From assembly GCF_963921235.1 (NCBI RefSeq), contig NC_086097.1, forward strand, positions 103,914,001-103,978,000: a stretch of DNA of 64,000 nucleotides, read 5' to 3'. The number at the start of each line of letters is the position of its first letter. Position 1 is the first letter of the stretch. The notes under the pieces were generated by a model. It was not told where the DNA came from. It saw only the letters and a list, made by a program, of their open reading frames with translations, and made no database searches. This document shows positions 1,556-63,263 of the stretch, piece after piece. This stretch comes from Mobula hypostoma (Eukaryota). Both the position numbers and the translations under genes were made by a program.

Positions 1556-4275
1556 CTGTTCATTTTCACAGATAAAACAGAATGAGGCATTTTATATTTA
1601 ATGAAACCCGCAACACGGAACTCCAAAAGTTGCACACAGAAGCACGCTAAAGAGTTTTACGTAATAACGTCATCATGTCGAACCAGTTTCTTAAAGTGAA
1701 CCTCCAACTCAGTGTCAGTGATTGTGCATAATGTACATTTCACCCAATTACGTCACCCTACACAGCACCCTCCCCCCCCCCAGTAATTCACTAGAACTGA
1801 CATTGTGAGCCTGCCTGGAGTTCAGATGAGCTACCCATGGGTCCTATGTTCCATGGGTGGAGGAACAGCAGGTACCTCTGGCTTGTCTGGAGGTGTGTCA
1901 CATGCACATGGGCAGGTTGTGATGTCAGGGGCATGGTCACGGAATTCTCCAAATCTTGGTGGGCTGGTTTAAGGCGATCTTCTGGAATACGTTCAGGTTT
2001 ACCCTTCTTATCTATCTTATCTTATCTTTTCTCCTCATTCCAAAACACAGAACGACCATCATAAAGGGGCCTAAGGGGGTGTTGGTGTGCGTCATGATGG
2101 ATGAAAACAAACAAGACGGAATGTAGGTCAACAGGAACCCAAGGAGGCTGTACGCCACGATGGGAGGTAGGAATAGGTGAAAAGGAATTGAATTTACTGA
2201 GGAGGGTGGAACGCTGTCGAGAGGCCGACCAGGAATGAAATCACTTGACACTTGTAACAGCTGCCCATATACCAGTTCTGCCACGGACATGTGCAGGTCC
2301 TCTTTTGGAGCAGTCCTGAGCCCCAGCAGGACTTGCCATTGGACCATGGATGATATGCCGTGGTGTGATATAGCCAGGTTTTTGGGCCCAGAGGTCTGAA
2401 ATATCATATGGAGTGCCAAACCGAGCAACCCAGGTGTTGACAAACACCCAGCCATGTCTGTGTCCGTAGCTACCTGGTGGTACAGTCCACCATGGTGAGA
2501 AGGTACGTGAAACTGTGGGGAGGAGAGGGGGGAAAGAGGACCAACGAGGTCCACACTGACACAGTCAAAACATCGCTCAGGAACCTCAAAAAGGTGCCAA
2601 TGGCGCCTGAACGTGACGGTTCATTTTTGCCCACTGGCAAGCTATATGAGCTGCAGTCCAATCATGCACATCCTTTCTGTGACTGTGCCAAACAGATTTT
2701 AATGCAGCCAATTTCTGTAAGGCCTTCTGGCCTGGATGTGAGAGGCCATGAATGGAGTAGAAAGCAGTCTGTCTCCATTTTGTGGACACAATGTGGTGAG
2801 GGCGACCGGTTTGGACATTGCACGGGAGAGAAACCGCAGCTTCCCCGAACTTGATGTCAGCCAACTGACTGCTGTTCAGTAAGCTTGGACCTCTGGGTCA
2901 GTAGCTTGGTCGGCTGCCATGCCGGGATCGTCATCCTCTAGCTGTACGGCCTCAGTGGCTGGCCGTGAGAGGCAATCAGCCGCAGCATTATTGTTTCCCG
3001 TGATATGTTGTACATCAGTTGTGAACTCTGGTACATAGGCCAGGAGGTGTTGCTGCCGTGAAGACTGACAGTCTGATGTTTTGGCCACATGTGTACGAGG
3101 GGTATGTGGTCAATGACTGCTCTGGAATGGTGACCCTCTGGAAGATAATGAAACTGGCGGACAGGCAGCTACAGATTGAGAAGCTCACAGTCAAACGTGC
3201 TGTACTTCATTTTCGGGGGGATGGAGCTGCCGGCTGAAGAAGGCGAGCGGCTGCCTCACGTCTCCAAACAACTGTTCATGCACAGCACCCACGGCACAGT
3301 CTGAGACATCAATAGTAATGGTGTGTTGGGGAGTGGGAGCGGCCATAGGGTCTCATTGGAAACAGCTCGTTTGGTGTCACCAAATGCCCTGGTCACGTCC
3401 ACTGACCAGTCAAGCACGTGATTGGGGGTATTACCTTTAAGCGCACTCTACAGGGGGAGCATAAGTTCAGCATCTTGCAGAATGAAGCGGTGATAGATAT
3501 CCACCGTGCCTAAAAACTCCTGTCATTTTTTAGTAGTGCAGGGTGGTGGGAAATTTATAATAATGTCTACCTTTGAAAGGTGTTTCACACCTTCTGCGGA
3601 GATGTGATGGCTGAGAAAATCAATGGTTGCAACCCAGACTGGAATTTAGCAGGGTTAATAATCAACCCGTGCTGGCTTAAGGACTGGAAAGGTACGGAGA
3701 TGAGATACGTGTTCAGATTTGGATGCACTGGGGCAAGTATGTCATGTGGGTAAACAAAAAGAACTTCTAAGTCTTGGAGTCCATCAGCCATTGGAAAGTC
3801 TGTGCTGCATTTTTCAGTCCAAATGGCACGCACAGAAACTGAACAAGGCCAAACGGGGTTATCATAGTTGTTTTGGGAATGTCCTCCAAGCACACCGGCA
3901 CCTGAGGGTAACCCCTAACTAGATCGACTTTGGAAAAAATTAACTTTCTGATTAAACATGGAGTAAAGTCTTAGATGTGTGGGACTGGGTGACAATCGGG
4001 GGTGGTGGACTCGTTAAAGCATCGGTGATCACCACGTGCCCTGCAACCACCATTGGACTTGGGGACCGTGCAGAGGGGTGAACCCCAGGGGCTATTCGAC
4101 CGGTGTACAATGCGAAGTCTCTCCATGTTGACAAACTCAGCCTTCGTGGTTGTCAGCTTTTCTGGGTCCAGTCTATGCGCACAGCAAGGACTGGTGAGCC
4201 AGTTGTGGAAATGTGGTGCTCGACCCCATTTTTATGTCTGTAGTGGAAAATGTGGGCTTGGTGAGCTTTGGGAAT

Positions 4276-4503
4276 TGTAAACCATATATATATGTTGTAA
4301 CTGGGTTACCTGTCTGGACACGCCGCTCTGCTGACTGCTCCTGTGGCTCCTCCCACAGACCCCTGAATAAAGGTGATTTCGCCATTGCTCCTCCCCCTCA
4401 GTCCAGGGGCAGACACTCAGTATGAAGGTCACGTTTTACTGCGAATAAAAGCCTTTCAGTATTTACCCTACTTCAGTCTTTTGGAGTAATTGAAGGTGCT
4501 TCA
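4276..4503 (+). repeat. 5' LTR of Mag-like Gypsy
   Basis: Direct repeat of 8451-8680; ends in CA; AATAAA at 4444-4449; first few bases missing. Confidence 0.95.
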
Positions 4504-4528
4504 ATTTTATTCACAGTAATTTTAAAGG

Positions 4529-7500
4529 ATGGAACGTACCTTGAGACCCAACAAGTTAGACTTCGACCCGTAAACACCTGAAGCTGGAAACACTTTCGAA
4601 CTCTGGCTGGCTTGCTTCGAATCATACCTAGAGGAGATTAAAGTGACCAACCCCGCAGCGAAGCACAGAGTTCTCCTCTCCAGGGTCAGTCCACGGGTCT
4701 ACTTGATGATCAGAGACCAACCGAGCTACGACGGCACGATGAGCACACTCAAAGGACAATACCTGCGGCCAGTAACACCGTCTATGCGCGGCACCGATTA
4801 GCGACACGGCATCAGCAGCCTGGGGAATCAAGTGCTGAGTTTGTCCGGGCACTACAGACACTCGTGCCGACCTGCAGCTGCCAAGAACTGACGGCAGGAC
4901 AGCATGCGGAGCTCCTAGTGAGAAACGCCTTCGTCACGGGGACCAGGTCAGTGTATGTGCGCCAGCGGCTGTTGGAAAAAGCTGATGTTACCTCAAGTTC
5001 GGCGATCGAGCTGGCCGACATGCTGGAGGCCGCTCTGCACAACTCTGAGGATCTCCAGGCACGCGATCCCCCGATGGCCTCGTGGGTGCCGCAGACCCCG
5101 CAACCCGCCAGCAAATCGACCTCGGCTGCTGCCAGTCACGAGTCCGCAAAGTGTTACTTCTGCGGACTCGAGAAGCACCCCCGGAAATGCTGCCCGGCCC
5201 GAGAAGCTACCTGCTCCAGCTGTGGAAAGAGGGGCCACTTCACCAAGGTCTGAAAGTCCAAACCGCGAACAGGATCGAGCAGCGCTGCGTGTGAAACATG
5301 GGGGTCGCCATCTTGCCTGCCGCCATCACATGTGAGACATGGGGGTGGCCATCTTGGTTGGCGCCACCTCGCACCTCCTACAACCAATGGGTGCTCATGG
5401 GGTACTCCACCACGCCGGACCAAGACAGCGACTCAACCCTGGCCTCATGACCCTCGACCAAAGCGCTCCCCAGCAGCTCGCAAGGTCAATGATGGACATC
5501 CTGGTGGAGGGGCGCAGGACAAGCTGCCTGTATGACACAGGCAGCACGGACAGTTTTATCCATCCGGACATGGTGCAGCATTGCGGACTCGTGATACGGC
5601 CGGTAAGTCAGAGGGTCACCATGGCTTCCGGGTCGCATACAACAGACATCCAGGGGGGTTGTGTAGTGATGCTAGTGGTGCAGGGCACAGAATATCGGGA
5701 CTTTACGTTACTGGTCATGCCTCAACTGTGTGCCCCTGTGCTATTGGGGCTTGACTTCCAGAGCCACCTGAAAAGCGTGACAATGGAGTATGATGGGCCC
5801 CTTCCACCAATCATTATCGTAAATCCCCAGTTTTGTAAGGATACGTCACATACCCCGCTACTGACCACACACACACACCGACCCACACATCCCACCCAAC
5901 ACCATACCAACTGCCGCACTACCGACACCACTTGCGGCCTCTCCACCCTCAGGATCCCTCCCCCACCGCTGTTGGCCAACCTGACCCCCGACTGTAAACC
6001 CGTGGCAACTAAAAGCAGGAGGTACAGCGCGGGGGACAGAGCCTTCATTAAGTCGGAGGTGCAGCGGCTGCTTAGGGAAGGGGTCACTGTGGCAAGCACA
6101 AGTCCTTGGAGGGAGCAGATGGTCGTTGTTCGGAATGGGGAGAAAAATAGGATGGCCGTGGACTATAGCCAGACAATCAATAGGTTCACGCAGCTCAACG
6201 TGTACCCTCTACCCCGCATCGCGGATATGGTCAATCGGATAGCACAGTACAAGGTGTACTCGACCATAGACCTAAAATCCACTTACCATCAGCTCCCCAT
6301 CCACCGGGAGCACTGCCCTTACACCGCCTTCGAGGCGGACGGCAGGCTTTATCACTTCCTGCACGTCCCCTAATGGTGTATCTGTCTTCCACAGAGCAAT
6401 GGACCAGATGGTGGATCAGTGCCAACTGAAGGCCACGTTCCCATATCTGGATAACATCACCATCTGCGGTCATGACTGGCAGGATCACGACAACAACCTC
6501 CAAAATTTCTCCAAGCGGCCAAAGCTTTCAATCTCACCTATAACAAGGACAAGTGTGCATTCGGGACCACCCGACTTGCTATCCTTGGGTGTGTCGTGGA
6601 GAATGGAGTCATTGGCCCTGACCCCGATCGTATGCGCCCCCTGTTGGAACTCCCTCTTCCCAACATCCTCAGAGCCCTCAAAAGGTGCCTGGGCTTCTTT
6701 TCATATTACGCCCAATGGGTCTCTAACTATGCAGACAAGGCCCGCCCCCTAGTCAAGTCCACCACATGCCCCCTCTCAACCGAGGCCCGCGCGGCCTTCA
6801 GCTGCATTAAAGGGGACATTGCCAAAGCAGCAGTGCATGCAGTGGACGAGACCATTCCCTTCCAAGTAGAGAGTGACACCTCTGACTTAGCGCTGGCCGC
6901 TACCCTCAACCAGGCGGGAAGACTGGTGGCGTTCTTCTCCCGTACCCTTCAAGGCCCTGAAATTCGGCACTCCACGGTGGAGAAAGAGGCCCAGGCAACA
7001 GTGGAAGCTATGAGGCACTGGAGACACTATCTCGCCGGCAAAAAGTTCACCCTGCTGACTGACCAGCGCTCAGTCACATTCATGTTTAGTAACCAACAGC
7101 GGGGCAAAATCAAAAATGATAAAATTCTGAGGTGGAGAATCGAACTCTCCACCTACAACTATGACATCATGTACAGGCCTGGGAAGCTCAATGAGCCCTC
7201 CGATGCCCTATCCCGGGGAACGTGCGCCAGTGCGCAGATCGACCGGATATACGCCCTACATGTAGACCTTTGCCACCCGGGGGTCACCCGGCTATTCCAC
7301 TTCGTGAAAGCCCAGAACCTGCCTTATTCCCTTGAGGAGATCGGGACGATGACCAGGGACTGTCAAGTCTGCACAGAGTGCAAACCGCACTTCCACCGAC
7401 CCGAAAAGGCACAACTCATCAAGGCCTCCTGCCCCTTTGAGCGACTGAGTGTCGACTTTAAGGGCCCCCTTCCCTCCACCGACCGCAATGTGTACTTTCT

Positions 7501-8381
7501 TAACATTATTGATGAGTGCTCGCGGTTCCCCTTCGCTATCCCCTGCCCCGATACCACTACCACGCCAGTTATAAAAGCCCTGCACAAGCTCTTCACTCTG
7601 TTCGGATACCCATGCTATATCCACAGTGACAGAGGGTCCTCGTTTATGAGTGATGAGCTGCACCAATACCTACTGGCTAGGGGAATTGCAACTAGTAGGA
7701 CCACGAGCTATAATCCCTGGGGGAATAGACAGGTGGAGAAGGAGAATGGCACGGTGTGGAAAGCCACACTCTTAGCCCTCAGGTCAAAGGGACTGCCGGT
7801 CTCCCACTGGCAGGAGGTCCTTCTCGAGGCACTCCACTCCATCCGCTCCCTGTTATGCACGTCCACCAATGCCACCCCTCATGAGCGGCTCTTTTCTTTT
7901 CCCAGAACGTTGACCATTGGGACCACCCTACCAACTTGACTGACGTCCCCGGGGCCAGTGCTGCTCCGGAAACATGCGAGGAGCAATAAGTACTCCCCGA
8001 TGGTCGAGAGGATTCACTTACTTCATGCGAACCCCCAGTATGCCTACGTGGTTTTACCTGATGGGTGGGAGGACACGGTCTCCATCCGCGACCTGGCGCC
8101 CGCAGGAGCTCCGGGCCCCTGAACACTCCATGGTGACTATTAACCCCGTATCCACCGATATATATACCCACGAGACACCGTGCACTCCAAGCCCTACAGA
8201 GACACCACACGACTCTCCCATACTGGGCGCGACGCACACGCACAAGGGATTACCAACGCCTAACGTGCTGGCACCTCACGTCAGGCCGGAGCCAGCACAA
8301 CCATGGTCGCTGGTGCAATCACCGCCGGTGCTACGTAGATCACAGCGACGGACTCGACCGCCTGATAGACTTAACCTGTAA
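4529..8381 (+). pseudogene. gag-pol of Mag-like Gypsy, disrupted by stops and frameshifts
   Basis: ATG 4529 (MERTLRP...); twin zinc knuckle CYFCGLEKHPRKCCPAREATCSSCGKRGH; protease LYDTGS; RT (SPW, DLKSTYHQ, YLDN); RNase H (VESDTS, EKEA, LTDQ); integrase HHCC and DFKGP...HSDRGS; ends PPDRLNL*. Confidence 0.92.
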
Positions 8382-8450
8382 ATATACTTGTTGTAAATAT
8401 TGTCAGTCACTTCACCCTGCGGGACTCTTTTAAGGAAAAGGAGGGGTGAA

Positions 8451-8680
8451 TGTGGTAAACCATATATATATGTTGTAACTGGGTTACCTGTCTGGACACA
8501 CCCCTCTGCTGACTGCTCCTGTGGCTCCTCCCACAGACCCCTGAATAAAGGTGATTTCGCCATTGCTCCTCCTCTCAGTCCAGGGGCAGACACTCAGCAT
8601 GAAGGTCACGTTTTACTGCGAATAAAAGCCTTTCAGTATTTACCCTACTTCAGTCTTTTGGAGTAATTGAAGGTGCATCA
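8451..8680 (+). repeat. 3' LTR of Mag-like Gypsy
   Basis: TG...CA termini, immediately preceded by the polypurine tract. Confidence 0.95.
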
Positions 8681-9994
8681 CCCAGCAGTCGAGTAAACTC
8701 ACATGCAGTGGTGCATGTGCTTGACAGGGTCGTTGTGGGGAACTTACTGGGGGAGCCGGGTAACGACACAAAGTCCTTGACATCCACAAGCCGGCAGTTC
8801 TTCAGATCGAACAACAGTCCTTGGGCACACAGGAAATCTGCACCGAGCAGAGGTCTAGTCAGTTCAGCGAGGATGAAGTCCCATGTGTAACGTTACCTAC
8901 TGAAGCAGAGCGTCACCCATCGTGTCCTGTAAGTCTGGATCCTGCTGCTGTTGGAGGTCTCCAGCGAGGTTTCGTCGCTCTTTGTCTTCTCATCAATAGA
9001 CGATGCCGACAGCACAATCACTTCAGCACCCGTGTTACACAGGAAGCATCGTCCTGGAAGGGTGTCTGTAATGAACAGTAGACAACCCTGCCAGCTGGAA
9101 CCCACAGTGTTCACAGACCTCTGATGGCCTGATGCAGTAGCACTGTTCGTGTGTGGTTTTAAAAATAAAGCATTGTCTGTTTCACAGATGTGAGCGTCCT
9201 TATGTAGACCAGGCTTATTGAGGTAGAGAAAGGAGGAGGAATGATGCACCACTGCCTGGCTGAGTGCAGACCATCAGCCATCTTTGCAAGCTCCCTATAG
9301 TCCATCACGGGTGCATTAGTGAGGGCTATGCAAACTTGATCAGGCACTTGCTGCATGAAGAGTTCTTTAAAACTAAAACAAGGATGGTGATTTCCCGGAA
9401 GAGATGGCATGTAGTCCATTTGTTCCGAAGGCCCAGCATCACTGAGACTGGGTAGGGAGAGCAACTGTTTAGTGCGCTTAGACTTTGTTAGTCCAAAAGT
9501 TTGTAAAAGGTGAGCTTCCAGTGATCAGAGTTTATCGTGTTCAGGTGGGTGTTCTGAAAGAGTCACCACTCTTGCAGCCATGGAGTTGCTGAACAATGCT
9601 ACCACATAGAAATATTTGGTGCTGTCAGTGGTGATTTCTCACAGAGTAAACTGGGTCTCAGATTATACAAACCAAGCAAAGGCACTTTGCTCCCATAACT
9701 CAGACATTTTCAAAGCAGCTGCATTGGCTGACATGTTCAATAACCTTGGAATTGTCCTAGAGCAACTGGGTCACAATGTAGGTTTTCGCAAATAAAACAT
9801 CATCCCACCAAACCAGCCTTTTAAAATGAAACCCCAACCCAATGTTGGTGATTGTGAATTATGCACATTTCTTGCAATTACATTACCCCACAACTCTAGC
9901 TTAAGTTTAGAAACCTAGTATCTTAACAACTTCATAACTGATTGATGTGGGTGCTCCCAATATGTAAAAGAAACTGTATTAGTGCTGCTTCCTG

Positions 9995-13057: not shown

Positions 13058-15236
13058 TGTCAGAAAATGTGGAGAGGGTTTGTCCCAAATTCAGAGCAGT
13101 GGACACAATTCAGCAGTGAATGATAACTTTGATAATAAACCGCAAAATAACAACTGATGAGGGGCCATGAGAGACTACAGATATTAAATACAACAGGTAA
13201 CGAGGTAACTGAAGGCTCGGGGTAACTGGTTGAGGCTGGCTGCTTCGATGGGTGAACAGGGACAGCGGATGAGAGCTAGGTTTAAGTATGCTGCAGGTGA
13301 TGAGCCAGGTTACTCCTGTTAGCTGGGTGAAGACTGGGAGATGCCTGCCTGTGCAGGCCTGACAGGACCTCTCTCCTATGGCCAGCATCTGACAGCCCAG
13401 GATGATCTGGGTGGGTCTGGTGGAACTCTTCGATGAGCAATGGATTGAAGATTAAATTGGACCCAGTCGGCCAGGTAACGCACACCCCATCCACAACGAT
13501 GTCAAACCATCAACCAGTGGACTATGTACACTGGAACACCTCCACCATTCTAGGTGTAGACTGAGTGGCCCATCAATAACAGGCTTGAGCCAGGACATGA
13601 GGAAAGTAAATGTGATCCCAAGGGACGGTGGTAGCTGGAGACAGATAGTGACTGGATTGCTGCAATGGGTAATCTTGAAGGGACCAATGAACCTGGATGA
13701 GAGCTTGCAGGAGTCAGCGCGCAGCCAAATTTCGAGTGGACAACCAGACATGGTCTCCAAGCCGGAGTAGTCTGCCTGGGTGCCAAAGGATGCCTGGCAG
13801 CGGTAGATGTGGTTGGCAGCTAGGATGACCCTCCATACCCTCTTCCAAGCATTCTGGCAGCAACAAACCAGTGCCCTGGAGGACGGAACCTCCACTGTTG
13901 ACTCCTCTGCGGGGAACTGGGGGGGGACGGGATAAAATGACGAACTTCAAAAGGTGACATACCTGTAGCAAAGGTATGTGTGGATTCTGGGACGGTTCAT
14001 TCCAGAACCAATACTTTTTCCTGTACAAAAGATGCAGTTTGCACCTGAACTGGAAGGGGACTAACATCCCAGTGGGAAGGTTTGTTAATGCTGCATGGTG
14101 GGGTTTAAACTAGAGTTGTAGGGTGATGGGAACCAGAATGTCAGAACAGTCCATGGAGAGGTTGGTAAGCCCTCCAAGTCAGGAATCAAAGGCTGCAACT
14201 AGTGTCCTGAGCTGAATATATTTCAAAGCAGGAAGTATCCTAGGAAAGGCGGATGAGCTCAGGGCATGGCTAACACCTAGAATTACAATATTGTAGCCAT
14301 TAGTGAGACTCAATTGCAGGGGGCGCAGGACTGGCAGCTCAATATTCCGGGGTTCTGTTGTTTTAGACCTGACAGAGCGGAAGGGGTTAAATGGGGAGCG
14401 GTGGTGTTACTATCAGGGAAAATTGTACAGCAGTGCTCAGTCAGGACAAACCAGAGAACTCATCTAGTGAGGCTTTCTGGGTGAAACGGAGGAATAAGAA
14501 AGATAGGACCACGTTAAAGGGGTTACATTAAAGACCACCCAACAGTCTGTGGCACTTAAAGGAACAAATCTGTAGAAAGATCACAGACTGTTTCAAAAAA
14601 CATAAGGTTATTATAGTAGGTGATTTCAACTTTCCACATACCAACTGGGGGACCCTGTAAAAGGACGAGATGGGATAAAGTTTGTTAGATGTGTTCAGGA
14701 CAGTTTCCTTAATCAGTACGTAGAAGTTCCAACGAGAGAGTGTGTGATACTTGATCTACTATTAGGGGATGAGACAGAGCAGGTGACAAGAGTTTGTGCA
14801 GGGGACACTTTGCATCCAGTGATCACAATGCCATTATTTTCAAAGTAACTATGCAAAAAGATAGGTCTGGTCTGTGGGTTGGATTCTAAATTAGAGAAAG
14901 GCCAAAAGTGTGGATTGGGACAGGCTGTTTTCTGGCAAAGGTGTACTTGGTAAGTGGGAGGCCTTCAAAAGTGAACTATGAGAGTACAAAGCCTGTGCGT
15001 GCCTGTCAGAATAAAATGTAAAGATAACAGGTGTAGGGTACCTTGGTTGTCAAGAGATATTTAGGACATGGTTAAGAGGAAAAGGAGGTACATAGCAGGT
15101 AAAGGCAGGTAGGAACAAATGAGGTTATTTTTGGAGTATAAGAATACAAGAGGACACTGAAGAAAGAAATCGGGGGGGGGCGCTAAAAGAAATTATGAAG
15201 ATGCTTCAGCAGACAAGGTGAAGGAGAATCCTAAGG

Positions 15237-17487: not shown

Positions 17488-18337
17488 TCCTAAGGGATTC
17501 TACAGATATATTGAGAGCAAAAGGATTGAAAGGACAAACTTGGTCCTCTGGAAGATCAGAATGGTAATTTATGCATGGAGCTAAAACACATGGGAGAGAT
17601 CTTAAATACTTGTTTTGCATCTGTATTTGCTCAGGACATGGACATAGAGTCCATAGAAGTGAGGCTAGGCAGCAACAACTTCATGGACCCTTTACAGATT
17701 ACGGAGGAGGAGGTGTTTGCCATATTGAGAAAAGTCAGGGCAGATAAATCCCCAGGGGCTGACAAGGTGTTCCCTCAGACTCTCCGGGAGGAAAGTTCAC
17801 AAATTGCCGAGGTCCTAGCAGAGATACTTCGTGACAGGAGAGGTACCAGAGGATTGGAGTCAGTGTTGTTCTGCTGTTTAAGAAAGGCTCTAAACGTAAA
17901 CTAAGAAATTACAGGCCGGTGAGCGTGACATCAGTAGTGGGAAAGTTATTGGAAGGTATTTAAAGGGACTGGATATGAGTATTTGGATACACATAGACTA
18001 ATTAAAGAAAGTCAGCATGGCTTTCTATGTAGTAAGATAGATAAATAGATAGGTAGATAGATAGATATACTTTATTGATCCCGAGGGAAATTGGGTTTTG
18101 TTACAGCGGCACCAACCAAGAATAGAGCATAAATATAGCAATACAAAAACCACAAACAATCAAACAACAAAATGCAAACTATGCCAGATGGAAAATAAGT
18201 CCGGGCGACTTCCTGGTCATCAAGGGATTGGCGGCGTAAGGAAAAGATCTCTTGGCCAAAAAGAAGGTAAACTGCCCCAAAATAGAATTTGGACGAATAC
18301 TTAATATTGTATAAATATATTAATAAAAGGGGCAAGG

Positions 18338-19323
18338 ATGATGTCTAAGAAGAAGATTAAAAAGTCTGCTCCGAAGGCTGATAAACATAAAGAGACGCAG
18401 CAAGGCAAAGGGCCTAGCTCCCCCACGGCAAGCCAGGACGGAGATAATGAGGGGAAATCGGTGACTCTGTCTTTGATTCTCGGAGAGATTCGCGAGTTCC
18501 GACAAGATAACAGCAAACAGCTGGAGGATATTAAAGGAGAAATAGTAAAAACTAACTCGAGGATAGATGAAGCCGAAGCGAGGATTGTTGGAATTGAAGA
18601 GAAGCTACAAAACGCCGAGGAAGTGATAGCAGAAATGCTAAAGCTACAAGAGCAGCTCCAGTGGAAACTAATAGATCAAGGAGGCCGCTCAAGAAGGGAA
18701 AATGTGAGGCTCTACGGAGTTCCCGAAGGAACTGAAGGTAAACCCGGATTGATGATTCCCTTCGTGGAGAAGCTGCTTAGAGAGAACCTTGATATACCGG
18801 CCGCAAAAGACCTACAGATAGAAAGGGCTCACCGTGCGTTGGCACCACAGCCTCCGGCAGGCGCCCAGCCCAGATCAATTCTGGTCAGATTTCTCAGTTA
18901 CAGAACGAAGGAAGAGGTGCTTAAATGGGCATGGCAAAAGAAAGTTTTCATGTGGAGCAACTGTAAAATCAGTTTAGACCACGATTACGCACCGGGGATT
19001 CTTGTCAGACGGAAGGAATATGCAGAAACACGGAGGGTCCTGAAGAAAACAACATCAGATTTCAGACCCTGTATCCAGCTCGGCTGAAAGTCTTTTACGA
19101 TGAAGGGACAAAAACTTACGCTACGGTGGAGGAGGCAACGTTGGACCTGGCGGACCGGGGACTACCTATTAAAGTTATCACCCAACCGGAGTCGCTACTG
19201 GAGAGGATTCGGCAGAAGTCGTGGCAGTTAGTGGGGCGAGAACGCTCCACACGAACCAGAGTGTCAAACTACAAGGAAAAGCTGCAAATAGTCAGACGCG
19301 AATGTACAGAGAATACAGACTAA
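18338..19323 (+). pseudogene. L1 ORF1p (coiled coil, RRM, CTD), frameshift near 19050
   Basis: RSRRENVRLYGVPEG, IERAHR, PRSILVRF, RRKEY motifs. Confidence 0.9.
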
Positions 19324-19677
19324 ATAACAGAAATGACTGAAAAGAGCAATTCGGACTTAAAGGTAAAATGAAAGCTGGTATCTGAAAATAAACTAGACGG
19401 AATAACTTGAATGATAGCAATATGGTCGAGACATAAATAGGAGAAAATTCTCTATGATTATTCAAACTGCGGAGGGCCCTCTAACACAGGGTGAAGATAG
19501 AGGTTATCCCTCTGAACTGAGGTGGGTCGGTGCTCACGTCTCCCTGTGGGAAGTCGGGAAAAATTTTCAAATGTTATACGTTCAAAAATGTCCAGGTTAT
19601 ATGTTTTGGTTTACTGTGGAGAAGGGATTGCTTACTGTTTGGTTAGAAAAGGAGAGTTTTTTTTCTACTAGAGAAAA

Positions 19678-22600
19678 ATGCAAATTGAATTGGTAAAAAT
19701 AATTTCCTATAATGTTAATGGGGTTTTGAATCCAATTAAAAGAAATAAGATTATGTCTAAATTGAAAAAAGAGAGGGCACAAATAGCTTTCCTCCAGGAA
19801 ACACATATGAGCCAATCTGAACATGGAAAATTAAAAAGAATGGGCTTTAAGCATGTATTTTATTCATCATATAAATTGAGCCACAAAAGAGGGGTAGCTA
19901 CTTTAATATCAAGTACTCTTAATTATGAACATATTTCAGAGACTAAAGACAAAGATGGAAGATTTGTAAAAATTACAGGAAGAATAGAAGGTACAGAAAT
20001 AACATTGCTGAATGTTTATGCTCCTCCAGGTAGTGAATGGTCATTTTATAGACACATTTTTGACCTAATGGTCAGTTCTCAAGGGGTAGTAATTTGTGGA
20101 GGGGACTTTAATATTAGATTAAATCCTATATTAGATTCTTCAAGAACAGTTACTCAGAATAAACCTCTGACTCGGAAAATAAATTTATTGATGGAGGAGT
20201 TGGGAATTATAGATGTGTGGAGGGAATTATACCCCACTAGTAAAGATTATACACATCACTCTTTCCCTCATTCAGCCTATTCAAGGATAGACTATTTCTT
20301 TATCTTTAATACAGATAGACTCAGGATAAAAAACTGTAATATTGCAACAATTGATCTGTCAGATCATAGCCCAGTCTCTATGTCTCTAATCCTGGAAAGG
20401 AAAGTGAGGAAAACACTATGGAGGCTAAACTCAGATATACTCAATAACCCGAAAGTAATGGAGAGATTAAGGGGAGAAATCAAAGAATACCTAGACCTTA
20501 ATGACACGGGAGAAACATCACCAGTGACCTTATGGGATACATTGAAAGCTGTACTGAGAGGGAAAATGATTTCCATTACCACTCACATGAAAAAAATCAA
20601 TGCACAAAAATTAGCAGACCTTCAAGGAAAATTAAAACAACTTCAAGTTGTAGATAGCAACAAAAGTAATTCAAATTTAAAACAGGAAATTAGGAAATTG
20701 CAAAGTGAAATTGACAATATTTATAGGTTGGAAACTCAAAGAAATTTTCTTTACCTGAGACAAAAGAATTATGAAGTAGGAGGTAAATCAGCTAGATTAT
20801 TAGCATATAAATTATGAAAACAACAAGCAGACAATACAATTCATAAAATAAAGAATCCAAAGACAAAGCTTGTGGAGAGTACAATAGGGAAAATTCAAGA
20901 GAGTTTTGAAACATATTATCGAGAGCTGTACTCCCAACCCCGGGCCTCCAATGAACCCTATATAGACAGTTTATTGAATTCTTTAGATCTACCTAAACTT
21001 ACAGATTCACAAAATGAAAGTTTATTAGAACCAGTAACTGCCAAAGAACTGAACGTGGCCATCTCTAGGTTAAAGGCTGGAAAGTCCCCAGGTTCAGATG
21101 GGTTTACCTCAGAGTGGTACAAATCCCTGAAGTCACAGTTAGCCCCATTACTACTTAACACCTTTAATTGAATCTTGCAGAGAAGAGAAACTCCACCTTC
21201 CTGGAGAGAAGCGATTATTTCAGTTATTCCTAAAGAAGGTGAAGATAAACTAGAATGTGGCAATTATCGGCCAATTAGTGTTCTTAATTTAGATTACAAA
21301 CTATTTACATCTATATTAGCGTGCAGATTGGAAAAGCTCTTACCTGGCCTAATCCATTTAGACCAGACTGGATTTATTCAACAAAGACGAACACAGGACA
21401 ACATAAGGAGAACTCTACACATATTAGAACAGGTTAATAAGAACGAGACAGAGACGATGGTAGTAGGATTAGACGCTGAGAAAGCTTTTGATTCAGTTAG
21501 TTGGGTATTCCTATACAGAGTGTTAGGAAGATTCGGCTTTCAAGAAAAGTTTATTAAAGTAATTCAGACTCTATATGACAGCCCTACAGCTCGAATTAAG
21601 ATAAATGGGGACCTCTCTGACTCCTTTATTTTAGAGAGAGGCACTAGACAGGGATGCCCAATTTCTCCTCTCCTTTTCGCGCTGTATATTGAACCGCTTG
21701 CCCAACTAATAAGACAGAGCGAAATCGTAAAAGGTATCAAGGTGGCAGGGATTGAACAGAAAGTGGCGTTATTCGCAGATGATGTTTTAGTCTATCTCAG
21801 TGAACCAGAAAAATCATTTATAGGATTGTTTACGCTGTTGGATGACTTTGGGAAAATATCAGGTTATAAAATAAATGTAAAGAAAACGCAGGTTATGTCC
21901 CTAAATTATACACCATCCAAAAAATTGCAGGATACATATGATCTTAAGTGGGAAGCTAGATCATTAAAATATTTAGGAATAACCCTGCCGAAGGATCTTT
22001 CAATGCTGTCACAGGTAAATTATGGGCCATTAATCTCAGAGATAAAAGCAGATATGCATAGATAGAATCTTATCCCCTTTTTTAAGTTTAAATTCAAGGA
22101 TAAATACTATAAAAATGAATATTCTTCCTCGGTTACTGTACCTTTTCCATACTTTACCTGTGGAGGTGGATGATAATCAATTCAGGGAATAGGACAAATG
22201 GATTTCCTGCTTCATTTGGCAAGGAAAGAAACCTAGAATTCAATATAACACCTTACAGTTAGGGAAGGAAGGAGGAGGTATGGGTCTTCCTTGTTTGAGA
22301 AATTATTTTTATGCTTCACAGATAACCCCTCTGTTATATTGGTGTAATAGGGAATATAAGGCTAGATGGAAGGAAATAGAATTTGAATTGGTTGACAGTT
22401 TTCCTCTACAGGCCTCAATAGCAGACAAAGGATTGATGGCCCAATTGGAAAAATTTAAAAACAGTTGGATAAATCTTACATTAGAAGTATGGCAGAAGGT
22501 GGTTAATTCATGTGGAATTAATAACATGTTAAAACTCTTCAGATAGTGTGCATATGATACCGAATTCCTTCCCAACAGAGGAGATAAAAGATTTGAACTA

Positions 22601-23466
22601 TGGATAAAGAAAGGTCTTACAACCTACCTCTCATTTATAGATGAAAGAGTATTACAAAGTTTCCAAATCCTGCAGGACAAACATGGCCTAGAACACAATG
22701 ACTTTTTTAGGTACCTTCAAGTACGAAATTATGTTAACCAGAGTTGTAGATATACAGACCTATCAACAGTAGAATTAGAATTTTTCAAGATTCTGAATTC
22801 GGCTTGCAGTTCAATACCTAGTAAATCAGTTTCTCGATTATATAATGCACTCTCCCATGCTAAAAATGTAAACACATTGTATATTAAAGAGAAGTGGGAG
22901 AAAGGAGCGGGGTGGTACTTTCAGAGGAGGCTTGGGGGAAAATATGCAGCTTTCTGTGGTCTTCGACTAATTCTTTGACTTGGAGAGAACATTGTTGGAA
23001 AAATATTATAAGATACTTTAAGACCCCATATCAGGAAAAATATAAAGATACAAACGTGACGTGTTGGAGAAAGTGCGGCTCCAAGGAGGCAAATCATTTC
23101 CATATTTTCTGGGATTGTCCTAAATTAAGTCTATATTGGGAAGGTATTCATAGAACATTAGTTAAGGTATTTAGGACCCAGATACCTTTGAACTTTGAGA
23201 CGCTCTATTTGGGGCATGTATTGTTTCTTGAACAGAAGGAAGACATAAAGTTGCTGCAGGTCCTATTAGCGGTAAGTAAGAAATCAATCACTAGAAAGTG
23301 GCTAAATCCAATACCACCTACATTAGAAGATTGGCACAAAATTATCTTGGAAATATTTAAAATGGAAAAGTTGACTTACTCCCTGAGAATTCAAAAAGAA
23401 AAATTTTATCAAATCTGGAATAAATGGATTGAATATATATCCCCAATGCGAGCAGACTTTAGATGA
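19678..23466 (+). pseudogene. L1 ORF2p (APE endonuclease, RT, Cys-rich domain) with several stops
   Basis: SYNVNG, LQETH, GGDFN, SRIDY, SDH; RT GTRQGCPISP, LFADD; CWRKCGSKEANHFHIFWDC. Confidence 0.95.
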
Positions 23467-25959: not shown

Positions 25960-28900
25960 TTTCCACTGAGGTTGGGTGGGTCTTCAACCAGAGGGCATGG
26001 GTTAAGGGTGAAAGGTGAAAAGTTTAAGGGGAACTTGAGGGGAAACTTCTTCATTCAGAGGGTCGTGAGAGTGTGGAACAAGTGGTGCATGCGAGCTTGA
26101 TTTCAACATTTAAGTGAAGTTTGGAAAGGTACATGGGTGGTAGGGTATGGAGGGTTATGGTTCTGGTGCAGGTGAATAGGAGCAAACAGCTTAAATGGTT
26201 TTAGTATGGACTGGATGAGCCAGAGGGCCTGTTTCTGTGCCCTTTGTGGAAGGGTTAGAGGTGGCAAAGTACCACAGAAATCTCTCCACTTGCTGATTGG
26301 ATCTTTCTATCTGTCTGTTGGTCTATGGAAGGTAGCCAGAGGACAAACTCACTGAGGCACAGAGGAGAAGGCAGAAGACTTGGAAGAAGTGTTGGACCAA
26401 ATGTTGCTCCCAGTACGACACAATGACCTGAGTGGAATGAACTACATGTTGGAGAACCAACTCTGCCACCTCAGCTGCTGATGGAGGTTTGCAAAGGGCA
26501 ATGAAGTGGGTTGCCTTAGACAACCAGTCTACTGTTATCATGATCACCATAGCCCCATTGGAAGCTGGTAAATCTGTGCTGCAATCCATGGCAATGTGGG
26601 ATGAAACTGGCAGGAACTGGTAGGGGGATTTGGACTGGGCACATTGAAGGCAGCCAGCTGGGAACTGACGTACATCTGTAATTGTGGTGGGCTACCAGAA
26701 CCGGCATCACAGGCAAATCAGAATCCATCCTACACCTAGATGGCCAGAGCAGGGTGAGGAGTGGGCCCACTGGAGTGCTTCAGAGCGCACAGCTGCCATC
26801 ACATACATGTGCATTTTCAGGTGTTTGCCAGAGCAAGCTCGTGCTGTAGGGTCTCGTGGATCTGGTTCTCAAGTTCCCATCGATCAGGTGTGATCTGGGA
26901 AGATGGAATGATGAGTGAGGGTCAATCTCCATTTCAGCTGGGTCAAACTGTCACGACAGGGCGTCTGCCTCAGTTTTCTTGGAGCTGGGTCAGTAGGAGA
27001 TGGCCAAATTGAACTGTTCGAAGAGGGCCAGCAAGTCCAATGTGGGTAGAGATGGATCTGAGGTTCTGGGAGTCAGTGCAGATCAGGATGGGCTTGTTGC
27101 TTCCCATCAGCCAGTATCTCCATTCCTCCAAGGCCCTCAATGTCTTCCGTTCTATATGGCACTGCGTAGAGTTGCACTTGGGCCAGCAGAAGGACCAAAG
27201 ATCTGTCTTTCCATCTGATTCTTTCTGGAGAGGATGGCCCTGGAGTTCACATCAGTTGTGTCCACCTCTACCACTAGAGGTCCAGAGGGGTTTGGGAGCT
27301 GTGGTGAAGCTGGAGTTCCCCGAAGGCACGGTCTGCAGGCCCAGAGGGATTTAGGAGCTGTGGTGAAATGCCTCCAGAGTTCCCCGAAGGCATGGTCTGC
27401 AACTACAGAGCAGGATATCCGTAAGGTAGGTGACTTGACTAGGGAGGTGAGAGGAGAAGCAATATGGCTGTAGTTTCTGATAAAACACGATAGAAATGAG
27501 AAAATGCCAAGAAGCACTGTAGCTGTTTGAGGGAGAATGGTCAGGGCCATTCAACAACAGTCCACATTTTCTCCACTATGCCTTGGGATGAAAGGATGTA
27601 ACCCAGGAAGATGACTGGAGTGTGGAAGTGGCAGTAGAGTTTGTTTTCGAGGAAACACAGAAGGACTTAATGGACACGACCAACGTGGTCCTGAAGATCC
27701 TTGGAGAAGATGGGATCTCATTGAGGTAGGTGATCACAAACCTGTCTTGGAAGATCTTGTTGCTGAAGGCTTGGAAAACAGCGAGACTGTTGGGAAGTCT
27801 GAAAGACATCACGAAGGATTAGTAGTGGCCAGTGGGTGTTACGAACGTTGTATTCCACTGGCGGATGTGGATCAAGTGTATCAGCTCTGCGGATCAGTTT
27901 GGTGAAGATCTGGGCTCTTCTGAGTGTTTCATGTGCTATACATCAAGGGGAGTGGGTAGTGGTTGTTAATGTTGAGTCCACAGTAGTTCAAACAGCGACA
28001 GAGACCCCTGTCTTTCTTTTTGACAAAGAAGAATCCTGCATCGGCTGGAAACTGGGATGGTCGAATGAAGCGATGATGCAGTGATTCAGCGATGTACTCA
28101 TTCATGGCTTGGGTCTTGGGAGGGGAGAGGGAGAATGCATGACCTCAGTGAGGAATGGTGCCCGGGAGGAGGTTGATCGTGCGACCATGTTGTCTATGAT
28201 GTTAGAGTGTGCTGGTCTCCCTTTTGCTGAAGGTGATAGCTAAGTCATGGTATTCCTGTGGGAATTTGGTGAGGTCAAGGGTTTCCTCATTTCCAGAGAT
28301 TTACAGGGTGAGGTCAGCTGGGGTTGCAGGCAGGTGGGTCCCGAACTCAGCAGGTGACCAGGTGGAGTGAGAGTCGAGAGTAGGGAGCTGGGGGTAACCC
28401 AAGATGAGAGGAGTGTTGGGTGAGTCAATAAGGAGGATTTTCAGTGACCTCTGACGCTCATATTTACAGAACAATGTGCACGCTCTGACCATCCCAGACA
28501 CCCAGGCACACCCATCAATGGCAGTGATACAGAAAGGGCAAGAGATAGGCTCGGTAGGGAATCCAAGCTGCACACAGACTCCAGTTCGGAAAGTTGTCTG
28601 CTACACAGGAATCCAACTGAACCTTCTGTGTGTGCAGGCCTGTCAGGGTATGAAGGAGGAAAGAGGGAGAGAGTCGGTTATGGTGCTGGAACAAGGGGCT
28701 GGGGGGAGATTACCAGATAGGAGGCCCGTTGTCTCTGCCTTTTGGCGCTATTTTCTGGATGCAATGGGCATTTGATGGGTAGGTGATCAGTTTCTCCACA
28801 GTAAGCACACAAGTTGTTCCTCCATTGATGGGGTTAAGGGAACTCTCCCTAACTGCGTGGGTTCTAGAGACTGCCAAGGGTCCTGCAGCCTGAAGTGGTT

Positions 28901-32228: not shown

Positions 32229-35200
32229 TGGTCAGGTGTCAGATCTCTTGGTGGGAGAGCATTTTGGAGGTAGTGACTACAACTCTATCTCCTTCACCAT
32301 AGAGCTGGAGAGGGATAGGAGCAGACAAATTGGGAAAACATTTAATTGGGGTAGGGGGAAATATGGTGCAGGAATGGGAGCATAAATTGGGAGCAGATGT
32401 TCTCAGAGAAATGCATGGCAGAAATGTGGCAAATATTCAGGGAACATTTGCGTGGAGTTCTACATAGGTATGTTCCATTGAGACAGAGAAAGGATGGTGG
32501 GGTAAAAGAACCATGGTGTACAAAGGATGTAGAAAATCTAGTTAAGATGAAAAGAAAAGCTTATGAAAGGTTCAAGAAACTAGGTACTGTTAGTGTCACA
32601 ACCACGGATTCCGTAGCACATCAGATACGGCAATTGCACTCGTGAATATGCATGTGTCAGCTAATTATTATTTCATTGTGATGGTATTTAACTGCATTCT
32701 TTCCGTTGTAGTCTTTGTCAAGACTTGAGCAAAGCACAGCAATGCTTTGCTGCCTGCTTGCATTCAGCCTTGCCTGAGAAATTGGACTGTTGAGTCAACT
32801 GACTCTGAAGGTGAGCAGTATTCGTTTTGTATTCGTTATTCCTTTCATCCACAGTGTCGGCTTCATTTTCCATTTGAGAATTTTAGTTAATGGCCTTGTT
32901 TGGCCTAGTATTTATTGTTTCTTTTCCCTCTAACTCTGTTTGCATTAAAGTCTGAACTACCAACCCGCTTCTGTTACTCTCACTCCGCACTTGGGCATAT
33001 CTGAATCCGGTGACAGCAAGACGATGCCAACCAAGCATTTTCAGAGTTAGAGCGACGTTTCACCACTGCCCCATCGTTGCAACACACAGACCCATCTCAG
33101 CCATTCATTGTCAAGGTGGATGCATCCAATGTCGGCATTGGCACTGTCCTCTCTCAGCGCTCATCTGCGGATAGTCGGCCGCACCCATCTGCCTTTCTTT
33201 CCGGTCGCTTGACTCTGGCCAAGAGGAATTACGACATTGCGAACTGCGAGATTCTGGCTGTCAAGGAGGCCCTGGAGGAATGGTGACACTGGCTGGAGGG
33301 GGCAGAGCATCCATTCTTGGTCTGGTCAGATCACAAGAACCTCTCCTACATTCAGGATGCAAAGAGGCTCAACTCTCGCCAAGCCTGGTGGGCTCTCTTC
33401 TTCACCCGGTTCAATTTCATCCTCACATATTGTCCCAGCAGCAAGAATACCAAGGCCAACGCTCTCTCCCAGCAGTTCAACAGTTCTGAGGACAAGCTGA
33501 TCCAGGAGCCCACTCTTCCTCGCTCATGTATTGCTCCAGTGATCTGGGGAATAGAAGCAGAGGTGAGGGCCACCCAACAGTTGGACCCAGGCCCGGATGC
33601 GGGACCTCCCAACCGGCTGTTTGCCCCTGCTCTGGTGTGTTCCAAAGTGTTGGAATGGGGTCACTCCTCCCGTCTGGCTGGACATTCGGGAATTCAACGG
33701 ACTCAGGAGTTTATAAAGAGACAACTTTGGTGGCCATCTATGTCCCCAGATGTCCACGACTTTGTATCTGCCTGTCCCACCTGTGCTTGAAACAAGACAT
33801 CACACCAGCGTCCCGTGGGTCTGTTATGTCCACTGCCTGTGCCCCACCCCCTGGTCCCACCTCTCAGTAGATTTCATCACTGGTCTGTCCCTGTCTAATG
33901 GAAACACCACCACTTTGGTCATTGTGGATCGATTTTCCAAGGCTGCCCACTTCATTGCCCTCCCCAAGCTCCCATCGGCTCGTGAGACTGCCACACTCAT
34001 GGTTCAACATGTGATCAGGCTCCATGGTTTTCCTCAAGATATAGTGTCTGATCGTGGACCACAATTCACTTCCCGTTTTTGCAAGGCTTTCTGCCCTATT
34101 GTAGGAGCTGCGGCCAGCCTCTCGTCTGGCTTCCATCCGCAATCCAATGGCCAGGCTGAGAGTGAACAACCCTTGCCTCTTCCAGCCCCACGTGCTGGAG
34201 CTCCCAGTTGATTTGGGCAGAGATCACCCACAATAACCTCCAGTCGTTCTCCACCAGTATGTCTCCCTTTGAATTCCACAAGGAATTCCAGACCCCGCTC
34301 TTCCCTGATCAGGAGATCAACTAGGAGTTCCTGCTGCTGAACAGCTGATCCAGTGCTACAAACGCACCTGGAGATGAGCCAGGGCTTTTCTGCTGTGCAC
34401 CCAGAAACAGCATTCCCGGCAGGCTGATCGGCTCCATCGACAGGTAAGGCCATTCAAGCCAGGAGAGGAGGTCTGGATGGCATCGAGGGATCTTCCTCTG
34501 AAAGTTGAGAACTAGGAATTGGCACCGCGCTGCGTGGGACTGTTTGTAGTGGAAAAGGCTGTCAACAAGGTGTCCTATAGATTGCCTCTACCAGCATCAC
34601 TGAAGATCCTCCCAGTATTCCATGTTTCCCAGCTCAAGCTGGTTACTACTCTCCCCGGCCTCAGTCACCCCACCTCCCCCTCCTCCCTGCCTGGTAGATG
34701 GTTCTCTCGTCTATACTGTGCAGCGCCTCCTGGCATCTTGCTGGGTACCTGGTAAAGTCCAGTACCTTGTGGACTGGAAAGGGTATGGTCCAGAAGAACA
34801 TACTTGGATCCTGGCAAAGGACCTGTTGGACAAGTCGCTCATCTGGGACTTCCAGTGGACACAGGCCCGTGGCACTTCAGGGGCTGCGCAGCAGATGTGG
34901 TAATTGCGCTTGTGAACATGCACGTGTCAGCTAATAATTATTTCATTGTGATAGTATTTAACTCCATTCTTTCCGTCGTAGTGCTTGTCGAGACTTGAAC
35001 CCAGCACAACAATGCTTTGCTGCCTGCTTGCATTCGACCTTGCCTGAGAAATCAGACTGTAGTGTCAACTGGCTCCGAAGACTAGCGGTATTCGTTTCGT
35101 GTTAGTTATTCTTTTCAGCCGCAGTGTTGGCTTCGTTTTGCATTTCAGAGCTTCAGTTAATGGCCCTAAGTGACCTAGCATTTATTGTTTTCTTTTTCCT

Positions 35201-61600: not shown

Positions 61601-63227
61601 GTTTAGATCTTATAATTGCTTTTTCCGTTCTATATGTCTGAAGCGTATTATATTGTAACTTCTTATTAATAAGTTGTCTTCGTATTTCTTCTGACATATA
61701 CCGTTGTGTCTCTTTTTCCAATTGATCTAGTTCTGCCATATATTCTTTCTTAATTTTAGATGTATAACTTATTATCTGTCCCCTAAGATATGCTTTCATC
61801 GCATATTCACCAGATACAAGAACAAACTCAGGAGAGCGAGATAGATTGAAGATGAAGATTGGGCTTAAGAATGGATTTGTTGGATTTTTGAAGCTGAATG
61901 AATGTATAAATATAGTATTAATTATATGAGGGGGGTAAGAAAGGTTAATACTGGAGGAAATTAGCTGGGAATAATAATACTAATTTTGTCTATATATATA
62001 TAACTTTTTTTGTTGCAGGGGAGCTGGAAGAAGCACTGATCGATTGCTACGTTAATCATGTGTGCAAGCGTGACTTTTGCTGCGACCCGTAAAATGGAGG
62101 GGGGTAGTGTTGTGTATCTTTTCATTCACAACATTAGTGGGGGGGTATTTTGTTTTTTCTTTTTTTTCTATCTTTTTTTTCTCTTTTTGCCTGGAAGGTT
62201 GGGGGTGGGGGGGGAACACATAGCATCATGGTGAAGTTTAAAGAGATTCCCCAAGGAACTATGAGAGTTGAGAAGATAAGTAATGTTTTAGATTGGAGTA
62301 ACTTTGTTAAGAATAATGACTAATTTATTGAATTTTTTGAGTTTTAATGTTAATGGGCTTAATGGACCAGTGAAAAGAAAAAGAATCTTAACATATATTA
62401 AAAAAATGAAGATAGATTTAGCTTTTTTACAGGAAACACACCTAACAGAAACAGAACATCAGAAACTAAAGAGAGATTGGGTGGGTAATGTTGTTGCGGC
62501 CTCATTTAATTCAAAAGCGAGGGGAGTAGCAATTTTGATCAATAAAACGTTACCAATTAGAATACAAAATGTAATAACTGATTCTGTGGGGAGATATGTG
62601 ATTATACATTGTCAACTTTTTTCCGAACTATGGACTTTTATGAATATTTATGCACCAAATGAAAATGATGCAAAATCCATACAAGAAACTTTTTTGAATT
62701 TGGCGGATGCACATGAAAAAATATTAATTGGAGGAGACTTTAATTTTTGCTTAGACCCAGTCTTAGATAGATCAACCAAGGCTGTTATAAAATCGAAGGT
62801 AGTAAATCTAACTTTATCATTGATGAAAGATTTAAATTTGATTGATATATGGAGAAGAATCAATCCTAAAGAAAGAGACTATTCGTTCTATTCCCATAGA
62901 CATAAAACTTACACAAGGATAGATTTTTTTCTATTATCAATGCATATTCAACATAGAGTGAAAAATATGGAATATAAAGCAAGAATATTATCAGATCATT
63001 CTCCTTTATTAATGACAATAATAATGGCTGATAAGGAAGAAATGGCTGATAAGGAAGAAGTGGCTTATAGATGGAGATTTAATTCAACATTATTAAAACA
63101 TCAAGATTTTTGTGATTTTATGAAAAAGCAGATTCAATTTTTTTTGGATACAAATTTTCATTCAGTGGAGGATAAATTTATATTATGGGATGCGATGAAA
63201 GCATATCTTAGGGGACAGATAATAAGT
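58670..63227 (-). mobile_element. L1 LINE with 5' inversion (minus-strand 3' body 58670-61804; plus-strand inverted segment 61805-63228)
   Basis: 14-bp TSD tggcttcttccatt (58656-58669, 63228-63241); poly-T at the left end; RT on minus strand, endonuclease on plus strand. Confidence 0.95.
58906..61804 (-). pseudogene. L1 ORF2 RT and C-terminal part
   Basis: KSPGEDGF, YRPISL, LDAEKAFD, TRQGCPLSP, LFADD; stop near 59943 and frameshift near 59350. Confidence 0.93.
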
Positions 63228-63228
63228 T
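62316..63228 (+). pseudogene. L1 ORF2 APE endonuclease (inverted segment)
   Basis: MTNLLNFLSFNVNGLN, LQETH, GGDFN, TRIDFF, SDH, WDAMKAYLRG. Confidence 0.93.
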
Positions 63229-63263
63229 GGCTTCTTCCATTGAGCCAATGTCTAATCTAATTT

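Follow-up and report, generated by a model that had tools for sequence, protein, structure and literature searches.

Several retrotransposons are described as priming reverse transcription with their own RNA, and these are the closest described systems to the element reported here. In the excerpts cited, Tf1 is presented as a self-priming element whose primer-binding site (PBS) matches its long terminal repeat (LTR) over 11 nt (PMC7175516) and whose cDNA ends carry a copied PBS (PMC11042837), and a "pretzel" of three duplexes is given for Tf1/sushi, with both flanks of the PBS paired with the LTR as well (PMC10085805). The section used from Neumann et al. gives a rule for recognizing self-primers, namely at least 10 bases of complementarity starting 0–5 bases after the LTR, with plant Tcn1 and the TAR copia elements Houba and Osr-1 as predicted cases (PMC6317226). 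Skipper and fungal GalEa are described, in the portions cited, as having no PBS and no LTR complement (PMC5006619, PMC5445492), and self-priming has been proposed as ancestral (PMC3601003, in part). Within the parts of the literature covered, Repbase lying outside that scope, we found no report of self-priming for an animal lineage other than the chromoviruses, just Tf1/sushi, Tcn1, and plant TAR copia. To our knowledge, Tf1-type elements are the only ones in which self-priming has been demonstrated experimentally; in the literature covered it is otherwise a prediction, made for chromoviruses and one plant copia lineage.

We examined a 64,000-nucleotide stretch of DNA (the window), which contains a 4.4-kb LTR element with domains in the order gag-PR-RT-RH-IN; stops and frameshifts interrupt its reading frame, which begins at 4529 (Table 1). 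The LTRs, polypurine tract (PPT), and domain order place it in Ty3/Gypsy, and it is a dead copy of a compact lineage of about 4.0–4.4 kb with a single ORF and no chromodomain. The first four bases of its 5' LTR are gone, as judged from the start of the 3' LTR at 8451, and no left target site duplication (TSD) was found when one was sought with TG..CA on the 5' side (4265-4277). The flanks at 4265-4277 and 8681-8690 belong to a multi-copy CsRn1-type element that was split by the insertion; TSDs of relatives are 5 bp. The insertion is antisense to this older Gypsy element, between the latter's protease and RT, and the assignment of both older segments to the CsRn1 type is our assumption from their motifs. 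The RT active site reads YxDN, not YxDD, in the window (6444-6455), in 9 of 13 intact relatives (L001, L005, L007, L011, L025, L028, L043, L051, and L082), and in 29 of 110 scored proteins. Because intact ORFs with near-identical LTRs have YxDN, it seems compatible with activity.

Table 1. Features of the window element and of the older Gypsy element that it interrupts.
Feature	Position	Strand	Basis and remarks
LTR arm, predicted self-primer	4436..4450	+	14/15 vs 4505-4519; same register in 26 families; ends AAAA then GCC
Candidate polyadenylation signal AATAAA within arm	4444..4449	+	Sequence
Inner stem-loops from predicted cut	4449..4502	+	Fold; long stem in window, local 4–6 bp hairpin in most relatives
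Single spacer base, LTR CA to paired stretch	4504..4504	+	Register CA+2
PBS position, complement of LTR arm, without TGG	4505..4519	+	Sequence and contig depth
5' LTR	4277..4503	+	97% identity to 8455-8680; loose ends at 4277 and 4503; first 4 bases absent
3' LTR	8451..8680	+	TG...CA; has arm, without PBS partner
gag, broken	4529..5265	+	Stop 4571, frameshift near 4771, stop 5251; tblastn of intact relatives and ORF list
Twin zinc-knuckle region of gag	5152-5250	+	Second knuckle interrupted by stop at 5251
Aspartyl protease	5495..5758	+	PF13975, E 4e-11
Reverse transcriptase	6010..6778, ends approximate	+	Frameshifts around 6370-6500; active-site motif YLDN at 6444
RNase H	6779..7156	+	PF17917, E 4e-24; acidic motifs there
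Integrase (HHCC; core 7427-7717)	7259..8107	+	PF00665, E 7e-17; stop 7937; chromodomain not found
Polypurine tract	8432..8450	+	Sequence; similar purine tract 5' of relatives' 3' LTR
Older Gypsy, RT/RNase H/integrase part	2522..4180	-	tblastn with control L128
Older Gypsy, protease side	8680..9081	-	tblastn with control L128; same older element as 2522..4180

The window holds other repeats besides. A sushi-type chromovirus relic at 33035-34211 (plus strand) matches chromodomain-bearing fish proteins, and relics at 26323-27550 and 13452-14109 (both minus strand) are presumably sushi-type chromoviruses as well, going by their motifs. Relatives of the window's chromovirus and CsRn1-type relics were sought in the genome contigs, and none were found. 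Two LINE copies with endonuclease and RT frames lie at 18305-23466 (plus) and 58906-63260 (minus) and are taken by us to be L1/Tx1-type; many LINE fragments, presumably CR1-type, are scattered besides.

An earlier note on this DNA had reported that no TGG-type tRNA primer site follows the 5' LTR end at 4503, and that the bases there are instead the reverse complement, at 14 of 15 positions, of a segment inside the LTR that is also present in the 3' LTR. Inspection of the sequence bore out both statements. One explanation of such a match would be chance complementarity; the arm is AT-rich, and 2 of 3,000 random 27-mers from the window reached at least 14/15 against the window LTR, as did 0 of 3,000 shuffled PBS sequences. 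The folding energy of the region 4430-4530 is -27.7 kcal/mol (z -4.49), a value equaled by none of 200 shuffles, and the pairs of the inner stem had a probability near 1 at all nine transcript start points modeled. The one mismatch, which had been said to fit CpG decay, does sit at a CpG position. In copies of the window family read from contigs of four other runs (X1, X5, X9, and X15), the pairing base at 4513 accounted for 3056 of 4214 of contig depth in X1 (73%), 11483 of 17246 in X5 (67%), 59.6 of 76.4 in X15 (78%), and 0 of 77 in X9. As the pairing base is the majority in X1, X5, and X15, the window mismatch is mostly private decay. A variant within the LTR at 4443 was also common (36–99% of depth), with no partner change among the matches listed; its linkage between arm and PBS is not readable from these data, because 3' or solo LTRs supply most of the depth over the LTR.

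We then turned to related families. An alignment of 43 proteins led to 80 of 511 related metagenome-contig stretches and a further 12 from genome contigs, at 42–64% identity, and a search for relatives in viral contigs found none. The nearest named proteins were from the stingray Hypanus sabinus (74–87% identity), which makes a cartilaginous fish the probable host, and relatives at 50–61% were in cnidarians, nematodes, a tapeworm, a rotifer, an octopod, a crinoid, a tunicate, and insects; the host range of the protein relatives spans cnidarians, nematodes, flatworms, molluscs, arthropods, echinoderms, tunicates, and rays. Many Gypsy elements were also seen in bacterial genome bins (L083-L092, G001-G004; 15, 92, 142, and 3 RT matches), which points to heavy eukaryotic contamination of those bins. 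The related families, at 46–64% protein identity, have LTRs that are mostly unalignable. There were 32 rows with an LTR pair, and because the LTR ends were cut in L007, L011, and L048 and others were unfit (L049, L053, L078, L081, L082, and L084 being contig overlaps or unrelated repeats, and L052 a second element on the opposite strand), the start of gag was used as the anchor, chosen blind to hairpins. It could be placed in 46 of 93 sequences, once faultily (L089), and when looked for in the 51 remaining loci it was not found in 45. Within 170 bases upstream of the anchor, 34 of 45 loci had a perfect stem of 11–19 bp, and in 32 of these 34 the 3' arm began at CA+2, that is, one spacer base after the CA that ends the LTR.

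After removal of L089 and of L019 and L036, which had too little upstream DNA, 43 loci collapsed into 28 families, and the first member of each was taken to stand for it. A complement of at least 11 bases was present in the family's own LTR in 24 of 28 cases, against 11 of 756 cross-family swaps at a fixed split. The misses were L030, L031, L043, and the window, the last because its single mismatch breaks the perfect run. The covariation check that the earlier note had set for itself therefore passes strongly, and the swap result together with the fixed offset refutes chance complementarity, to which we now give a negligible probability. Other comparisons agreed. In 12 of 22 two-LTR elements (four families, L012 and L013 being one insertion) the LTR ends could be determined independently, from TG..CA and a 5-bp TSD, and in this set TGG was found in 0 of 12 and a perfect stem of 13–19 bases from +2 in 10 of 12. 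Two permuted contigs, from families outside the test set, had stems of 14 and 15 bp; L001 and its sister copies differed by a change on one side of the stem that is mirrored on the other; and the lengths of the A-run and T-run covaried. As controls, 20 Gypsy regions were fetched, and the 11 with usable LTR pairs had TGG within 8 bases in 10 cases and a self-complement of only 5–7 bases in all 11. The lineage thus lacks the tRNA-type TGG PBS of the controls, and it has at least 10 LTR-complementary bases starting 0–5 nt after the 5' LTR, as the published rule for self-primers describes.

The exceptions could be listed individually. L019 and L031 had no stem, the junction was deleted in L014, and L002, L003, L050, L070, and L092 were damaged; L030 and L055 share one mismatch, and L043 and L042 have stems of 9 bp. 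Both L019 (1-92) and L031 (1-119) have long intact frames with no recognizable stem 5' of gag, so that each has a damaged leader, an assembly join, or is a true exception. L051 (113-190) represents a deviant family with an arm ending in AAAT, T as the spacer, and a PPT ending in TA; the stem is nonetheless kept. Among the control elements, L126, L127, L130-L133, L135, and L136 had integrase before RT, an order that we assume to be that of the Gmr1 type; those of this group with readable LTRs (L127, L130, L135, and L136) had a TGG-type PBS, and L132 was without one. Collectively, these data show that the pairing feature is real and lineage-wide.

To describe the stem in register, 26 families with a stem of at least 11 bp, one mismatch allowed, were aligned; the CA+2 offset is built into this alignment. 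The arm is 13–16 bases long and the loop 20–69 nt. At positions 1–13, Watson-Crick pairs filled 334 of 338 cells, and not one G-U pair occurred at positions 1–14. Pairing then dropped to 18, 15, and 15 of 26 at positions 14, 15, and 16, and to the chance level of 5–7 of 26 at positions 17–19. The arm ended in AAA in 25 of 26 families, had a G ten bases before its end in 24 of 26, and was mostly followed by G/ACCT. From the first base after the arm, a hairpin of at least 4 bp could be formed in 20 of 26 families (mean 5.8 and maximum 12 in 1,000 shuffles), and this small hairpin contained 11 G-U among its 78 pairs, nine of them the closing pair. G-U pairs are tolerated where selection acts on RNA structure but do not arise by templated copying, and the absence of G-U from the stem thus suggests that the PBS is rewritten from the primer in each cycle.

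The same alignment bears on whether a host tRNA or tRNA half could be the primer, with the LTR match as a secondary matter. There is precedent for such priming, in that tRNA halves are described as primers of some copia lineages in the section cited from PMC6317226. Against it stand the absence of TGG from all 12 TSD-bounded elements and the arms themselves, which comprise 24 distinct 11-mers among the 26 families, with every family's PBS matched to that family's LTR, so that no single tRNA could serve. We consider a tRNA primer very unlikely. A separate ARAGORN search of the retrotransposon loci returned no tRNAs; its tRNA-Gly call in the window at 7126-7216 (minus strand) is likely false, as it falls inside the RNase H/integrase coding sequence. 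An Rfam search of G002 and G003 gave mostly tRNAs, on large, presumably bacterial contigs.

The interpretation that we favor with considerable confidence is that this lineage primes reverse transcription with its own RNA, in the manner of Tf1. Such a reading had been offered in the earlier note and is now supported by the 24 of 28 own-LTR pairs, the CA+2 offset, and the lack of both TGG and G-U. Weighing against it are the variant at 4443, the exceptions listed above and, as described below, the promoter motifs and the missing pretzel arms. The end of an LTR is set by the start of minus-strand synthesis, so a duplex one base after the CA sits where a primer must. In the predicted cycle, transcription would start at the arm or a few bases before it (4436-4440 in the window), and the 5' end of the RNA would fold onto the PBS. 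The element's RNase H, motifs of which are present in the relatives, would then cut between the final A of the arm (4450) and the G/ACC with which the small hairpin begins. The freed 3' end would prime minus-strand DNA from 4504 back to 4451, and plus-strand synthesis would copy the primer into a new PBS; with the new PBS copied from the primer, arm and PBS would stay strictly complementary. Polyadenylation would have to lie 3' of the cut, because a repeat is needed for strand transfer. In about half of the families the signal would be the AATAAA/ATTAAA of the arm, and pairing would then mask it too, but solely in the 5' copy.

Hiding the signal could in principle be the whole purpose of the stem, some other primer being used. 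The polyA hairpin of HIV-1 reportedly hides a 5' polyadenylation signal in this way, 14 of 26 families have AATAAA/ATTAAA at the end of the arm, and the arm's partner is present at the 5' LTR only. The other 12 arms, which have no canonical hexamer, pair equally well; moreover, occlusion needs neither a start at CA+2 nor a complete lack of G-U, and no TGG site is left for a tRNA. As the sole function of the stem, occlusion is therefore improbable. The suggestion made earlier, that the hairpin buries the 5' polyadenylation signal, may apply directly in those 14 families and does not extend to the remaining 12; it is plausible for about half of the families, and since the arm-end hexamer is confined to these, it does not account for the stem in general.

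The position of the transcript ends bears on another alternative, in which the RNA 3' end serves as the primer: the transcript would end at the A-run of the arm and its tail would pair with the PBS, while RNase H would make no cut near the 5' terminus. The arm's AAA terminus suits this scheme, as does the lack of a promoter motif that would pin the start to the arm. A conserved TATA box upstream of the arm was sought across families, and none was found. YHAGY is the initiator consensus, and an initiator-like match had its A at -11 in 12 of 26 families; despite this, the start is not cleanly readable, because pairing runs to -13 or beyond. The window LTR has a second AATAAA, at 4366, and in three runs a variant amounting to 27–47% of depth turned it into TATAAA; an initiator-like motif follows 34 bases later, at 4400 (4397-4403). 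The two motifs may mark a possible alternative start about 36 bases upstream of the arm, and an upstream start would suit a 3'-tail primer. Such a primer would also need a polyadenylation signal upstream of the arm, and a canonical hexamer was present there in just 4 of 26 families, two of which have one in the arm too; by comparison, 17 of 26 have one in the arm or 3' of it (14 at the arm end and 3 in the loop only). It would also leave the conserved hairpin after the arm unexplained. We regard priming by the RNA 3' end as quite improbable, and self-priming from a cleaved 5' end as the better account.

The lineage resembles Tf1 and Tf2 of S. pombe, Tj1, Tosmo1-3, Tcry1, and Tf1/sushi in that the PBS pairs with the element's own LTR and not with a tRNA. 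Further likenesses to Tf1/sushi are a similar length of pairing (11 nt in Tf1), a 5-bp TSD, and RNase H. Unlike Tf1/sushi, the lineage has no chromodomain or GPY/F, has two zinc knuckles, and has the loop length given above; unlike Tf1, it has a local hairpin at the predicted cut and often a polyadenylation hexamer in the arm, and its mode of priming is read here from sequence. Across RT-RNase H-IN it is about 27–30% identical to fish chromoviruses. The additional duplexes of the pretzel were not apparent: for the 3' flank of the PBS the family's own loop was best in 0 of 26 families (mean rank 0.50), and for the 5' flank in 2 of 24, one being the window, whose U5 end pairs back. With no preference of either flank for its own loop, the element probably operates as Tf1 does without belonging to the Tf1/sushi group. 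Tcn1 and the TAR elements show the same arrangement after the LTR but belong to another superfamily or other hosts, and Skipper and fungal GalEa, which have no LTR complement, differ from the lineage.

The earlier statement that the element is not a chromovirus was upheld, in that the chromodomain was found in 0 of 10 intact relatives and GPY/F in 0 of 13, and the family forms a clade (100/100) apart from the fish chromoviruses. Two CCHC-type knuckles were present in the gag of all 13 relatives. In the RT-RNase H tree the family is a long-branch clade (100/100), and its sister group in both best trees was Mag-type, with support of 96/96 in one (subject to a long-branch warning) and 84/96 in the other (with more Mag-type rows and a mixture model). 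It fell outside the Mag-type clade (99/97), as sister to 6–7 Mag-type rows and not nested among them; these rows were labeled by motifs that we take to be diagnostic and not by reference sequences. The description "Mag-like" is accordingly apt for the type of gag and the best tree fit, but not as membership of the Mag-type clade. The first tree left out 9 of 52 rows, and the trees included fish chromoviruses and no fungal chromovirus. An AU test of the family as sister to chromoviruses gave p values of 0.40 and 0.22 and did not reject it. The proposal of a separate self-priming lineage thus holds in so far as the family stands apart from chromoviruses in the best trees, but an independent origin is unproven, because the AU test keeps chromovirus sisterhood and the trees contain no fungal chromovirus.

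Among named groups, the twin CCHC gag is common to the lineage and the Mag clade (A, B, and C; Mag, SURL, and Jule), as described in the excerpt cited (PMC2577118), and a Mag-type control (L129) had a TGG PBS, unlike the lineage. The part of supplement 1 of PMC6238403 that was consulted places the Cigr-1 clade (Ciona intestinalis; molluscs, annelids) under the Mag lineage, a listing that fits the position of our family in the trees. No Cigr-1 reference sequence was among the named protein hits. Cigr-1 itself is said to have 245-bp LTRs, one 3.6-kb ORF, and a gag like that of echinoderm SURL, a size and gag type that fit the lineage in this comparison by description only. The lineage may therefore be the Cigr-1 clade. 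A new placozoan Gypsy clade has also been described, in the portion cited of PMC2871265.

As to novelty, the odds that self-primed animal Gypsy elements have been noticed before are about even. Repbase may hold notes on such elements. We advance only tentatively the combined claim that this is an undescribed, animal-wide Gypsy lineage that self-primes independently of chromoviruses and does so with a new architecture, in which the primer is often also the polyadenylation signal and the site of RNase H cleavage is flagged by a small hairpin. Self-priming in a widespread animal lineage close to Mag would be relevant to the question of whether the mechanism is an ancestral trait or one gained several times. 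The lineage, with many intact relatives and 24 different natural primer sequences, also offers a substrate less complex than the Tf1 pretzel on which to study how an RNase H can cleave double-stranded RNA at a single site, and the absence of G-U offers a sign of primer copying that needs nothing but sequence and could be used on other candidate self-primers. LTR finders that depend on a PBS would miss such elements, and the elements themselves, being self-primed, would escape control by tRNA fragments.
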